Shown: positions 1 through 7,626, counted from the first letter of the stretch. The stretch is 64,000 bases of DNA from Escherichia coli (GCF_001677475.2 NZ_CP015229.1); one strand, 5' to 3'. Translations and numbers: made by a program. Notes: generated by a model from the sequence alone, not told the origin.

Positions 1-193
1 AGAGCGCAGTGTCCTTGTAGCTGGCCCATGCAATATCCAGCGCGCGATCTTTTACCACCGTAAATGCCAGTCCCGCACCAGTACGGACATCAAACGCTTC
101 TGTACCCTTTGCTCTGCCACTACGTAACTCATAGTGTTTAATTCCGGCAACCTGCGAGAGATCGCCAATCCACGACCAAATTTCGTTTTTCAT
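1..193 (-). CDS. Aldose 1-epimerase-like (galactose mutarotase superfamily) protein, 5' part only; gene runs off the window start
   Basis: Minus-strand frame starts at ATG 191-193 (ATGA overlap with upstream kinase stop) and stays open to position 1; begins MKNEIWSWIGDLSQVAGIKHYELRSGRAKGTEAFDVRTGAGLAF...; family assignment from memory only. Confidence 0.4.
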   Translation of the reverse strand, partial: MKNEIWSWIGDLSQVAGIKHYELRSGRAKGTEAFDVRTGAGLAFTVVKDRALDIAWASYKDTAL

Positions 194-1152
194 TGTGCTG
201 CTTCCCGAATGGACATGTCATGGCGCTGGATGAACGTTTCGATTTCCGCAAGGCGAGACGTTCCCTCCATTGGGCCACGTCGGGTAACAGCCAGTGCACC
301 GCAGGCGTTGGCATATTGTAATGCCCGATGGGCGTCAAACCCTAGCTGGCGGCAGGCAATCCACGCGCCACCAAAGCAGTCTCCCGCACCGGTCGGGTCA
401 ACTTCTTCCACCGGATAGCTCTCAACATGAAACTGCTCATTCGCGGAGTAGTAACTGGCTCCTTGATTGCCGCGCTTCACAATCACCTCTTTAACACCTT
501 CTTCAAGAAAACCAGCGATTGCACGCTCCGGCGTCGAATGTGGCGACAAGAGCAACACTTCGCCCTCGCTGGGCATATAGATATCCGTTAACTCAAGAAC
601 AAAGTGGAGGGCGTCACGCATTTCTGGAATATCGAGCATCTCTTTTCGAATATTAGGGTCGAAAGAAATAACACCACCATTTGCTTTAACGATGGTTACC
701 GCTTTTTTTACTGCGTCTACCATATGAAACGAAAACAGGGATGAACCCATAATATGAAAATGGGTACAGTCCTTCAGAATATTTTCATCAACATGCTGCG
801 CCGATAATTTACCGCAAGCGGCATTCTTGATATTAAAAATAAAATCGCGATCGCCAGAGTTATGATAAGTAACAAAGGCGCTCCCGGTAGCTTCCAGAGG
901 TAAGACTGAAATCCCCCTGATATCCACACCGTCAGCAGCCAGACGATGTATATTAATATCACCAAAGCCATCATTCCCCACACAGCTAATGATGCCGCAC
1001 GGAACGCCAAGACGTGTCACCTGGTCGATAAAAATAGCGGGCGCACCACTGGGATAAGGGCCGTTCCAGATACCTGGTTGATCAAATGGCTGGCCGATTT
1101 TACTCGCCATAATTTCAACCAAAATTTCTCCAATTGTGAAGACCTTACTCAT
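190..1152 (-). CDS. PfkB/ribokinase-family carbohydrate kinase (kinase A)
   Basis: 320 aa ORF; C-terminal DPTGAGDCFGG motif typical of PfkB kinases; 21 bp downstream of permease gene. Confidence 0.85.
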   Translation of the reverse strand: MSKVFTIGEILVEIMASKIGQPFDQPGIWNGPYPSGAPAIFIDQVTRLGVPCGIISCVGNDGFGDINIHRLAADGVDIRGISVLPLEATGSAFVTYHNSGDRDFIFNIKNAACGKLSAQHVDENILKDCTHFHIMGSSLFSFHMVDAVKKAVTIVKANGGVISFDPNIRKEMLDIPEMRDALHFVLELTDIYMPSEGEVLLLSPHSTPERAIAGFLEEGVKEVIVKRGNQGASYYSANEQFHVESYPVEEVDPTGAGDCFGGAWIACRQLGFDAHRALQYANACGALAVTRRGPMEGTSRLAEIETFIQRHDMSIREAAQ

Positions 1153-1173
1153 ATGATTAATTCCTTGAAATGA

Positions 1174-2163
1174 TTAGCTGCGTTTTCTTTTATTTCTTAC
1201 GTCAAAATAAACGGCTACAAGAATGACTAATCCTTTAACCACCATCTGGTAAAAATAGGGAACATTCATTAAGTTCATGCCATTATTAATAACGCCGATG
1301 GTTAATGCGCCGATCACCGTCCCCACCACGGTTCCATAGCCGCCGTTCAGGCTGGTGCCTCCCAGTACAGCCGCGGCAATAGCATCCAGTTCGTAGCTCA
1401 ACGCGGAATTCGGTTGCCCGGAATAGAGGCGTGAGGCGAGGATCATCCCGCTGATACCTGCCAGCACGGCTGTAATCATAAAGACTTTAATTTTCAAGCG
1501 GGTGACATTTATCCCTGAATAAACTGCCGCTTCTTTATTACCACCAGTGATATAAATTTTTCGTCCAAAGGTTGTTTTAGTAAGAATGAAGTGGTTAATC
1601 AGCAATAAGATGATTAATATCCAGATAGGAATAGGTATATAGAGAAATTCTCCATTCCCCAGTGCCAGAAAGGCATCATCTTTAATCATGATGGGCATAC
1701 CATCGGTCACTATATAAGCGATACCACGGAAGATCCCCATTGTAGCAACGGTGACAATAAACGAAGGGATACCCGCTATAGCCGTCAAGCCACCATTTAT
1801 CATCCCCAGAGCCAGGGCTGCAATAATGGATAATGGGACCAATAAAATAAATGGAATTCCCCATGAAGCCCCAAGCGCAGCAAATGTGCCAATCAATGCA
1901 ATGGTTGAACCGACCGATAAATCAATATCGCCAAGCAAAAGTACATAAGTCATTCCATAGGCGGTAATTGCAATTATCGAAACCTGAAGAATAATATTAG
2001 TAATGTTATTGGCAGTAAAAAAACTGTCATTAATAAAACTGAACAGAATGATTAACACCACCATTCCACTGAGGATACCGCCATATTGCCTGAAGACTTT
2101 TTTAAAATTATTTGCAATGGGAATTTCCGAAGGTTTCGGACTGGCAAGAGTTTTCTCTGTCAT
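1174..2163 (-). CDS. Monosaccharide ABC transporter permease (RbsC-like)
   Basis: 329 aa hydrophobic multi-TM ORF; start abuts ATPase stop. Confidence 0.85.
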   Translation of the reverse strand: MTEKTLASPKPSEIPIANNFKKVFRQYGGILSGMVVLIILFSFINDSFFTANNITNIILQVSIIAITAYGMTYVLLLGDIDLSVGSTIALIGTFAALGASWGIPFILLVPLSIIAALALGMINGGLTAIAGIPSFIVTVATMGIFRGIAYIVTDGMPIMIKDDAFLALGNGEFLYIPIPIWILIILLLINHFILTKTTFGRKIYITGGNKEAAVYSGINVTRLKIKVFMITAVLAGISGMILASRLYSGQPNSALSYELDAIAAAVLGGTSLNGGYGTVVGTVIGALTIGVINNGMNLMNVPYFYQMVVKGLVILVAVYFDVRNKRKRS

Positions 2164-5828: not shown

Positions 5829-6659
5829 ATGAAGAGTGTTAACGTGCCGAGAAAATCGTCTAACCTACTGAAACGCAGATTAAAAATTGCAGAAATTGTT
5901 GCCGCCCAGGGTGAAATCAAAGTTGATGACTTATCTGCGCAACTTGGTGTCTCTGGCGTGACGATCCGCGGCGATCTCAGTTATCTGGAGCAACAGGGAT
6001 ATTTAAAGCGATCATTTGGCGGTGCTATTGCGACACCACTCTCCTCTGAACCAGAAGCGATACAACCGATCGCGCCATTGTCTCTGGCACAACAAATGGA
6101 AATAGCACGACATTGCGCACGGTTAATTCGGGATCGTGACACGCTATTTCTTGGACATGGGACAATCTGCCGTAAGATCATTCCCTTGCTCAGCGAAGTG
6201 AAAAAACTGCGTCTGATCACCAACGATCCCGAACATGCGCTGCTGGCAAATCAGTTTATTGATGGCGAAATAATACTGGCTGGCAGTGAAATGCTGCGCC
6301 CCGACACCGCACTGGCCGGAAAACCGCTTGAACAGGCACTTCAGCATTTCACCATTACACATAGCATTCTGGAAATCAGCCATCTGGATGCTGATGGTAC
6401 TTTAAATATCAACGTTCCCAGACTTGCCGCTGCCTGGCAGCTCTGTTTCGATCATGCCCAAAATAAGACAGTTATCGTTGCCGCCGACCCTGCGCCATCA
6501 ACGGCTGCTATCGGGCATTTGCATCAGGCAGAAAATGTGATCGTCAGCCGCAGCATTAACGAACAATATCAGCAACAATTGCAGTCGGCTGATTTCGTTA
6601 TCCTTTATACCAGTAATGAGTGCTTTACCTGGTCCAATCGCGAAAGGCTTCAGGAATGA
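5829..6659 (+). CDS. DeoR-family transcriptional regulator
   Basis: 276 aa; N-terminal HTH region (LKRRLKIAEIV...LSAQLGVSGVTIRGDL) followed by DeoR-type C-terminal domain; AAAGG RBS upstream. Confidence 0.8.
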   Translation: MKSVNVPRKSSNLLKRRLKIAEIVAAQGEIKVDDLSAQLGVSGVTIRGDLSYLEQQGYLKRSFGGAIATPLSSEPEAIQPIAPLSLAQQMEIARHCARLIRDRDTLFLGHGTICRKIIPLLSEVKKLRLITNDPEHALLANQFIDGEIILAGSEMLRPDTALAGKPLEQALQHFTITHSILEISHLDADGTLNINVPRLAAAWQLCFDHAQNKTVIVAADPAPSTAAIGHLHQAENVIVSRSINEQYQQQLQSADFVILYTSNECFTWSNRERLQE

Positions 6660-6669
6660 GAGGGGTTTT

Positions 6670-7626
6670 GTGACAATAACTATCTGCGCTATGGGCGAAT
6701 TGCTGGCCGAGTTTTTGTCCCGCAACCCACATCAAAAATTCACTCAGCCTGGAGAGTTTATCGGGCCATTTCCCAGCGGTGCGCCAGCAATTTTTGCTGC
6801 TCAGGTGGCAAAACTGTCCCATCGGGCCATCTTCTTTGGATGTGTTGGTAATGATGATTTTGGCCGACTCATTATAGAGCGTCTCCGTCATGAAGGTGTC
6901 ATTACCGATGGGATTCGCGTTATGAACAATGCCGTCACAGGTACGGCGTTCGTGAGTTATCAAAATCCCCAGCAGCGGGATTTCGTCTTTAATATCCCTA
7001 ACAGCGCCTGCGGTTTGTTTACTGCTGAGCACATTGATAAGGATCTGCTAAAACAGTGTAACCATCTCCATATTGTGGGCTCATCGTTGTTCTCATTTCG
7101 CATGATCGATGTCATGCGTAAAGCAATAACGACGATCAAATCGGCTGGCGGCACCGTTTCTTTCGATCCCAATATTCGCAAAGAGATGCTGAGCATTCCT
7201 GAAATGGCGCAGGCCCTCGATTATTTGATTGAATATACGGATATTTTTATCCCCAGCGAAAGCGAACTCCCTTTCTTCGCGCGTCACAAAAATCTGCCAG
7301 AAGAACAGATTGTTAGCGATCTTCTCCACGGCGGCGTAAAACATGTGGCGATAAAACGCGCCCAGCGTGGGGCCAGCTATTACAAGCTTAAAAACGGTAC
7401 ATTACACGCCCAGCATGTTACAGGCCACGATATCGAAATTATCGATCCAACGGGTGCAGGCGACTGCTTTGGCGCAACGTTTATCACTCTTTTCTTATCC
7501 GGTTTCCCGGCACATAAGGCACTGCAATATGCAAATGCCAGCGGCGCGCTCGCCGTAATGCGGCAAGGTCCGATGGAAGGGATATCCTCACTGGCTGACA
7601 TTGAAGACTTTTTGCAGCAGCACTGA
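6670..7626 (+). CDS. PfkB/ribokinase-family carbohydrate kinase (kinase B), paralog of kinase A
   Basis: GTG start after GAGAGGGG RBS (ATG 6691 alternative); DPTGAGDCFGA motif; long blocks shared with kinase A. Confidence 0.8.
   Translation: MTITICAMGELLAEFLSRNPHQKFTQPGEFIGPFPSGAPAIFAAQVAKLSHRAIFFGCVGNDDFGRLIIERLRHEGVITDGIRVMNNAVTGTAFVSYQNPQQRDFVFNIPNSACGLFTAEHIDKDLLKQCNHLHIVGSSLFSFRMIDVMRKAITTIKSAGGTVSFDPNIRKEMLSIPEMAQALDYLIEYTDIFIPSESELPFFARHKNLPEEQIVSDLLHGGVKHVAIKRAQRGASYYKLKNGTLHAQHVTGHDIEIIDPTGAGDCFGATFITLFLSGFPAHKALQYANASGALAVMRQGPMEGISSLADIEDFLQQH

Follow-up and report, generated by a model that had tools for sequence, protein, structure and literature searches.

The regulator-linked PfkB kinase of the Escherichia coli D-tagatose utilization island: relationships, genomic context, and a possible role

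The tag island and its control region

The stretch of Escherichia coli DNA analyzed here (64,000 nucleotides [nt] from GCF_001677475.2 NZ_CP015229.1, hereafter the window) begins within the D-tagatose utilization island of this species, which takes up positions 1-7626. The island encodes two PfkB-family kinases, A and B, and both the locus and its kinase pair have already been published; our subject is the function of kinase B, which lies beside the repressor gene tagR. Over 8 kb, the DNA is 98.4% identical to the locus of E. coli strain N3, where the gene order between accC and yhdT is the same. The following genes and regions were identified:

2-193, minus strand: tagE, aldose-1-epimerase family, first 64 codons; translation matches residues 1-64 of the N3 gene product exactly
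190-1152, minus strand: kinase A (ECOLIN_RS18675; tagD in the 2025 naming), PfkB fold, 320 amino acids (aa); open reading frame and Pfam PF00294
1174-2163, minus strand: tagC, ATP-binding cassette (ABC) transporter permease; open reading frame and RefSeq annotation of the N3 locus
2164-3663, minus strand: tagB, ABC ATPase; open reading frame and RefSeq annotation of the N3 locus
3724-4620 (RefSeq-equivalent start 4614), minus strand: tagA, periplasmic sugar-binding protein; open reading frame and N3 annotation
4650-5486, minus strand: tagY, GatY-like class II tagatose-1,6-bisphosphate aldolase; NCBIfam GatY subfamily, 500.7 bits
5487-5828: divergent control region of 342 bp between tagY and tagR
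5829-6659, plus strand: tagR, DeoR/GlpR-family repressor of the tag operon; open reading frame, repressor role from a reporter in strain Nissle (PMC12226905)
6670-7626, plus strand: kinase B (ECOLIN_RS18705; tagK in the 2025 naming), PfkB fold, 318 aa, GTG start; open reading frame and Pfam PF00294

A preliminary description of this DNA had proposed that two PfkB kinases in inverted orientation bracket the island. Both open reading frames are present, and both products match PF00294 (kinase A, E 1e-41, residues 44-296; kinase B, E 2.7e-44, residues 35-304). Kinase B does lie at the island's edge, but kinase A does not, as tagE is located outside it; the tagE start codon overlaps the kinase A stop codon, and the rest of tagE is beyond the edge of the window. 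The right junction falls within the window, with yhdT (starting at 7701, 74 nt after kinase B), panF, prmA, dusB, and fis following in that order; the left junction is seen instead in the 98.4%-identical N3 locus. G+C content is 0.42-0.49 over the island region, versus 0.54 in panF. The best NCBIfam models for tagA (RbsB-like, 162 bits) and tagR (AgaR-like, 105.6 bits) both score under their cutoffs.

The island is carried by 1421 of 5426 complete E. coli genomes, in every one of which the kinase A and kinase B genes are each present in single copy; kinase B is full length in all 1421. Relative to these copies, the allele of the window has diverged: its identity to the best of the 5426 genomes does not exceed 98.4%, and over window 1-20000, which adds the core genes from panF to acrF that flank the island, the best match is still no higher than 98.4-98.5%. 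The window DNA therefore belongs to a lineage of Escherichia or Shigella that this set of genomes samples poorly. With the Nissle locus it shares the eight-gene order tagE-tagD-tagC-tagB-tagA-tagY / tagR-tagK, the right neighbor yhdT/panF, the promoters, CRP site, and tagO operators, and the pair of kinases, reported as 51% identical in Nissle; unlike that locus, the window holds neither most of tagE nor accC.

Two studies have addressed the island in strain Nissle. Ha et al. (2022, iScience, PMC9720028) found that a six-gene minus-strand operon is required for growth on tagatose in Nissle, and that its transfer is enough to confer such growth on K-12, B, and W strains. When the gene at the kinase A position was deleted in frame, both growth on tagatose and tagatose consumption were lost, and in K-12 carrying the six-gene operon, without kinase B, PfkA, but not PfkB, was needed for tagatose growth (PMC9720028). 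The same study reported that the two island kinases are 51% identical, and that tagatose induces tagRK approximately 2-fold, as against more than 1000-fold for tagYAB, the first three genes of the operon. Using differential RNA sequencing of Nissle, Park et al. (2025, Microb Cell Fact, PMC12226905) detected only two transcription start sites in an 8.5-kb region, one before the aldolase gene and the other 11 nt before tagR, and assigned tagR and kinase B to one operon. They described two promoters (Ptag and Preg), a CRP site, and two operators, and identified TagR, by means of a reporter, as a tagatose-responsive repressor that controls the operon through operators located at the start site of Ptag; what the tagR-kinase cluster does was described as unexplored (PMC12226905).

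In the pathway given in this literature, the ABC transporter imports tagatose, kinase A makes tagatose-6-phosphate, the host's PfkA makes tagatose-1,6-bisphosphate, and the GatY-like aldolase cleaves this product. Kinase A, judging from the no-growth phenotype of the Nissle deletion, converts free D-tagatose to tagatose-6-phosphate. Two proposals of the preliminary description are borne out by these studies: (i) a route through a sugar bisphosphate on which the aldolase acts, and (ii) cotranscription of kinase B with the DeoR-type regulator, as is indicated by there being only two start sites in Nissle (PMC12226905) and by the 10-nt gap between the two genes here.

All of the published control elements could be located in the 342-bp region of the window, with zero to two base changes relative to the published region of ~341 bp; the region is 95% identical to that of E. 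coli N3. The elements were placed by eye from the description in PMC12226905:

5513-5531, minus strand: operator tagO2
5537-5555, minus strand: operator tagO1, with the core CTTTCAAAATGAAAG, a perfect palindrome, at 5541-5555
5557-5562 (-10) and 5578-5583 (-35), minus strand: promoter Ptag
5585-5600, minus strand: CRP-like site
5783-5788 (-35) and 5805-5810 (-10), plus strand: promoter Preg, also recovered by a consensus scan

The start of kinase B differs between our annotation and that of RefSeq, which gives the N3 gene 936 bp and 311 aa, 21 nt shorter, beginning at an ATG that corresponds to window position 6691 (in-frame start 10708 in L001). That ATG is without a Shine-Dalgarno sequence, and its use would drop seven residues that are conserved in the clade. 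We favor the GTG at 6670 because it has a GAGGGG sequence at 6660-6665, 4 nt upstream, is spaced 10 nt past the tagR stop codon (6657-6659), and encodes an N-terminus (residues 1-8) that is conserved over the whole group of B-type kinases, and because the representative of the 99%-identical database cluster is itself 318 aa long. The GTG is thus probably the true start, and the RefSeq start is probably too late.

Two other features of the minus-strand operon were observed. The window's tagY gene has an in-frame 18-bp deletion at 4996/4997, apparent in both protein and DNA alignments and flanked by CAA microhomology, that removes VQRTQI directly before a conserved strand. The deletion is absent from the eight best of the 1421 E. 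coli hits, each of which spans 855 bp, as well as from the aligned Yersinia, Klebsiella, and Gilliamella homologs, so that among the E. coli copies examined the window aldolase alone carries it; the enzyme of this strain may be impaired. Separately, an imperfect hairpin (29-nt arms, 76% complementary, 5-nt loop) at 3662-3724 spans the gap between tagA and the ATPase gene, and might influence the relative expression of the operon's genes.

Relationship of the two kinases

By BLASTP, kinases A and B are identical at 161 of 311 positions (52%; E 5e-117), and the shared blocks noted in the preliminary description are real; the identical blocks include SFDPNIRKEML, DPTGAGDCFG, PSGAPAIF, GSSLFSF, and ALQYANA. 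At the nucleotide level, the resemblance is much lower, with a codon-aligned identity of 58.7% (38% at third positions), a longest exact common run of 11 nt, and a best inverted repeat between the two genes of 29 nt at 83%. These values bear on the suggestion that the two genes, being homologous and in opposite orientation, are recombination substrates through which the intervening 5.5 kb could be inverted or deleted. RecA-dependent recombination in E. coli needs approximately 23-27 nt of perfect identity. Across the 5426 complete E. coli genomes, megablast with either kinase gene does not pick up the other, and no inversion isomer was found: the 8-kb query aligned at 5428 places in 5426 records, with each gene at one collinear place per genome in the 1421 island carriers. 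In addition, recombination between inverted repeats can flip the intervening segment but cannot delete it. The suggestion is effectively refuted, and the inverted arrangement appears to be without recombinational consequence.

The identity of database homologs to kinase B declines without a break from 99% to ~56%, and proteins of Klebsiella pneumoniae, Salmonella enterica, and Gilliamella are nearer to kinase B than kinase A is. Among the homologs of kinase A, at 57-61% identity, are Burkholderiaceae, Rhizobiales, and Alteromonas proteins that carry the name tagatose kinase. In neighbor-joining trees, the two sets form sister, non-overlapping clades of 118 (B) and 112 (A) proteins. With 200 bootstrap replicates (neighbor joining, Kimura distances, KDG kinase and fructokinase as outgroups), the B clade was recovered in 177, the clade uniting kinase A with the tagatose kinases (A/TagK) in 132, and the enterobacterial A subclade in 189. 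Because the trees place A and B in separate, supported sister clades, the two are ancient paralogs, both of which lie in the free-sugar tagatose-kinase branch. A recent tandem-type duplication was considered and rejected, as kinase A is closer to the beta- and alphaproteobacterial tagatose kinases than to kinase B. Together, the placement and the alignment indicate that the two enzymes are specific paralogs, beyond mere membership in the PfkB family, as had been surmised.

For both proteins the best-scoring model is the NCBIfam tagatose-kinase equivalog NF049991, although both fall under its 420-bit cutoff (kinase A, 414.1 bits; kinase B, 345.1); kinase A misses it only narrowly, and by the published genetics it is a tagatose kinase all the same. 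The Yersinia ortholog of kinase A scores 426.6 bits and the Caballeronia protein 488, giving an A-clade range of 414-488, while the B-clade members of Klebsiella, Salmonella, Gilliamella, and Yersinia reach 363-369. The next-best model, KDG kinase, is far behind (143 bits for A and 130 for B). Kinase A groups with the canonical TagK proteins of this family (Agrobacterium, Sinorhizobium, and Burkholderiaceae), which like it phosphorylate free tagatose and are likewise encoded after genes for a sugar-binding protein, an ATPase, and a permease; kinase B falls outside the family's score cutoff. Unlike the window, the canonical loci have the kinase followed by a GatZ-like protein, called a tagatose-6-phosphate epimerase in PMC9720028, and contain neither an aldolase nor a B-type kinase.

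We compared the active-site motifs of the 112 A-clade and 118 B-clade proteins. Ninety-seven alignment columns hold the same residue in both clades at a conservation of 90% or more, and these cover all of the active-site motifs; those in common are GE.LVE, PSGAPAIF, TG.AFV.Y..RDF.N, MGSSL.S, SFDPN.RKEM, DPTGAGDCFG, and GPMEG. The C-terminal DxxGAGD motif, which contains the catalytic aspartate and the anion hole and reads DPTGAGDCFG in both A and B, is conserved at 90% or more in each clade. The first PfkB signature (PROSITE) is an N-terminal GG-x-x-N sugar-lid motif; in kinases A and B, PSGAPAIF stands at the sugar-lid position, is conserved in both clades, and departs from this classical form. 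Ten columns are fixed differently between the clades, mostly hydrophobic swaps, one being E222 in A versus H225 in B. Between these two sets of proteins the B clade has gained no arginine or lysine, and kinase B shows no apparent sign of a phosphate-binding sugar pocket.

The ten columns invite the alternative that kinase B acts on another substrate, such as psicose, sorbose, or a tagatose anomer, and that the island senses or uses a second sugar. H225, fixed in the B clade, and the nine other positions would be consistent with this idea, as would the score of kinase B under the tagatose-kinase cutoff (345 versus 420) and the fact that it cannot replace kinase A for growth on tagatose (PMC9720028). 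However, the fixed differences are mostly conservative hydrophobic swaps located outside the recognized sugar-binding motifs, and among the loci sampled (described later) B-type kinases occur only in tagatose loci, whether of ABC type or of phosphotransferase system (PTS) type. We give a second sugar little credence.

Kinase B also appears to be a working enzyme. Its ratio of nonsynonymous to synonymous substitution (dN/dS) is 0.087 in comparison with Superficieibacter and 0.10 with E. coli N3, versus 0.034 and 0.03, respectively, for kinase A; kinase B is under purifying selection, less tight than that on A. With intact catalytic motifs and a dN/dS of about 0.1, the possibility that it is a pseudokinase was rejected. 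The structures PDB 3iq0/3k9e ("putative ribokinase II", E. coli, from structural genomics) are nearly identical to kinase A (E 6e-219, residues 1-320), and they also provide kinase B with its best structural template (E 6e-103). They were deposited without functional assignment, unlike kinase A, which is genetically defined, and are not known to have a sugar ligand bound; in the literature searched we found no paper linking them to tagatose kinase.

In the preliminary description, two PfkB kinases beside a bisphosphate aldolase were taken to fit successive phosphorylations, with kinase A making tagatose-6-phosphate and kinase B, as a dedicated tagatose-6-phosphate kinase, making the bisphosphate for the aldolase. 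The ABC-type island has indeed no other enzyme for the second step, and the need for PfkA was shown only in K-12 with a plasmid lacking kinase B (PMC9720028). Nevertheless, that need, the family assignment, and the pocket all run counter to the proposal. TIGR03168, the model for the phosphosugar kinases (1-phosphofructokinase, LacC, and PfkB "hexose kinase"), gives only 46.0 bits for kinase A and 49.5 for kinase B, well short of its 216.4-bit cutoff, whereas the PTS-type locus of Klebsiella supplied a positive control, its 304-aa kinase reaching 311 bits. Kinase B instead sits in the free-sugar branch, with the same pocket motifs as A and without clade-specific basic residues. Its weak expression, with the ~2-fold induction cited above (PMC9720028), likewise counts against the proposal.

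The tagR-kinase B pair in other genomes

To place kinase B in its genomic context, we examined loci fetched around B homologs and located by a genome scan, and typed all 87 by tblastn with twelve locus proteins; these loci are a sample, not a census. In the 21 loci with a B-type kinase, the kinase gene without exception comes immediately after a TagR-like DeoR gene. The neighboring divergent operon is of two kinds. The ABC type (Escherichia, Enterobacter ENT03, Superficieibacter, Yersinia, Serratia, and Budvicia) encodes the aldolase, sugar-binding protein, ATPase, permease, and kinase A, followed by tagE or a GatZ-like gene. The PTS type (Klebsiella, Salmonella, Pseudocitrobacter, Gilliamella, Zophobihabitans, Tatumella, Erwinia, and Enterobacter Ag1) encodes the aldolase, a 1-phosphofructokinase-type kinase, EIIBC, and EIIA, although in Tatumella the aldolase is missing. 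Kinase A directly follows the genes for the sugar-binding protein, ATPase, and permease in the window and in at least 30 related loci; kinase B instead follows tagR.

The translational coupling between regulator and kinase is tight: in 16 loci the distance from the TagR stop codon to the kinase B start ranges from -1 to 21 nt, with a Shine-Dalgarno sequence at or just past the TagR stop. The window kinase, which belongs to the B clade and starts 10 nt after tagR, conforms to this pattern. The CTTTCAAAATGAAAG palindrome was found with zero to two mismatches in 14 of 16 intergenic regions, in both ABC-type and PTS-type loci and in both Enterobacterales and Orbales; those of Yersinia and Enterobacter Ag1 contain matches at three mismatches only. 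This distribution suggests that the TagR operator is common to the two kinds of locus. On this comparison, the aldolase and the TagR-kinase B pair form the conserved core of these loci, and the uptake modules beside it are interchangeable.

The PTS-type D-tagatose island of Klebsiella and Salmonella was reportedly described by Shakeri-Garakani et al. in 2004. It shares with the window a GatY-like aldolase, a divergent region containing CTTTCA-N3-TGAAAG, a TagR-like gene, and a B-type kinase directly after it, but differs in that a fructose-type PTS carries out both uptake and the first phosphorylation, and in that the second kinase is a tagatose-1-phosphate kinase of the 1-phosphofructokinase family; these replace the ABC transporter and kinase A. 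In Salmonella the tag island spans STM3251-STM3256 according to a literature mention, and we identified STM3251 as the B homolog from this span together with the gene order. The literature searched yielded, for B-type kinases, only the two Nissle papers and this mention of the Salmonella genes; as far as that search extends, the association of B-type kinases with TagR in tagatose loci of both the ABC type and the PTS type is not yet reported.

These loci further inform the proposal that kinase B phosphorylates tagatose-6-phosphate. That it is kept beside a tagatose-bisphosphate aldolase in nearly all of the loci sampled would fit such a role; however, PTS-type loci such as that of Gilliamella are complete by way of the 1-phosphofructokinase-type kinase, form no tagatose-6-phosphate, and yet keep kinase B. 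A further point, to which we attach little weight, is that a Salmonella STM3254 deletion mutant, with its B homolog intact, does not grow on tagatose or galactitol (PMC7972205), the galactitol route being one that passes through tagatose-6-phosphate; the report is inconsistent as to whether STM3254 is the 1-phosphofructokinase-type kinase or, as in its abstract, the aldolase, which weakens the argument. Considering both sets of evidence, we judge a second-step role for kinase B to be improbable.

One PTS-type locus differed in another respect: in Erwinia endophytica (L040, 9001-9666), the match to kinase B ends at about two-thirds of the protein's length, and this copy may be a pseudogene or contain a frameshift. 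In Caballeronia and Paraburkholderia (L020-L033), a DeoR gene lies directly before the A-type tagatose kinase, which is followed by a GatZ-like gene. Such a regulator-kinase pair may be the ancestral arrangement that gave rise to the TagR-kinase B pair.

Possible roles of kinase B

The reading we favor, with moderate confidence, is that kinase B is a low-level kinase of free D-tagatose, tied to TagR and serving induction, salvage, or both, rather than a second-step enzyme. Under this model, kinase B would be expressed weakly and nearly constitutively from Preg alongside TagR, and would phosphorylate the first tagatose to enter the cytoplasm, yielding a sugar phosphate sensed by the DeoR-type repressor; alternatively or in addition, it would salvage free tagatose. 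DeoR-type sugar repressors (LacR, FruR, GlpR, DeoR, and UlaR) usually respond to a phosphorylated sugar. The idea that kinase B makes the inducer, already raised in the preliminary description, is a reasonable hypothesis and is compatible with the comparative data. Among the particular roles, we tentatively rank the supply of inducer first, with plain salvage or backup next.

Several observations weigh against the favored reading. The comparison of sugar pockets was one of motifs only, which limits what it may say about substrate, and in the neighbor-joining trees the support for the A/TagK clade is moderate (66%). The growth defect of the Nissle kinase A mutant means that kinase B alone carries no measurable tagatose flux. 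In PTS-type loci, tagatose enters already phosphorylated, and induction there has no obvious need of a free-tagatose kinase. Moreover, Enterobacter sp. BIGb0383 (L023, 1-4400), whose locus is of ABC type, lacks kinase B and has yhdT/panF immediately after tagR, and the beta- and alphaproteobacterial tagatose loci have an A-type kinase and a GatZ-like partner but no B; because of these loci, kinase B appears to be dispensable for regulation in some lineages. Finally, free D-tagatose itself has been put forward, as a proposal only, as the ligand of TagR (PMC12226905).

An alternative is that kinase B is simply redundant, a second free-tagatose kinase left from an ancestral DeoR-kinase operon, acting at most in backup or salvage with no part in regulation. 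Its pocket motifs are the same as those of bona fide tagatose kinases, the DeoR-kinase pairs of Caballeronia and Paraburkholderia may represent such an ancestor, the gene has been lost in Enterobacter sp. BIGb0383, and it evolves two to three times faster than kinase A. A leftover would, however, be expected to decay, and kinase B, with a dN/dS of about 0.1, is still present in every one of the 1421 E. coli islands; furthermore, it has been kept with TagR, tightly coupled, over Enterobacterales and Orbales and over two uptake systems. We consider redundancy of this kind unlikely, albeit the most credible of the alternatives to a TagR-linked free-tagatose kinase.

A more specific, and more speculative, form of the favored reading is that TagR and kinase B constitute a portable sensor module that switches on whichever tagatose uptake system adjoins it. 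In such a module, kinase B would be a signal kinase, either making the phosphorylated effector of TagR or contacting TagR directly. The likeness to yeast Gal1/Gal3, which we offer as an analogy only, is that of paralogous kinases of which one serves flux and the other works with a repressor system; the yeast proteins are GHMP rather than PfkB kinases, with no homology to those discussed here, and kinase B, by comparison, keeps all of its catalytic residues. The analogy could be carried further, to a kinase B that acts purely as a ligand sensor, through protein contact with TagR in the manner of Gal3/Gal1 on Gal80 and independently of any kinase product. Such a sensor might be expected to show the invariant, tight coupling to TagR (-1 to 21 nt) and the portability of the pair between uptake modules, but it would have no need of the GAGD and DPN.RKE catalytic motifs, which are strictly kept, and TagR works without kinase B in some lineages. 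A pure sensor thus seems very improbable.

The island allows E. coli, mostly of phylogroup B2 and including Nissle and many extraintestinal pathogens, to grow on the sweetener D-tagatose, and it is under development as an inducible expression switch, of which the second kinase is the main unexplained part. The locus also carries a warning for annotation, in that two PfkB genes beside a bisphosphate aldolase need not amount to a two-step phosphorylation pathway. Should the true inducer be a product of kinase B, the enzyme would determine how sensitive tagatose-inducible systems are and how long they lag, and its role would explain why the repressor-kinase pair is conserved over two unrelated uptake routes. 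If TagR and kinase B do form a portable module, the pair would be a bacterial counterpart of the division of labor between the sugar kinase paralogs Gal1 and Gal3.

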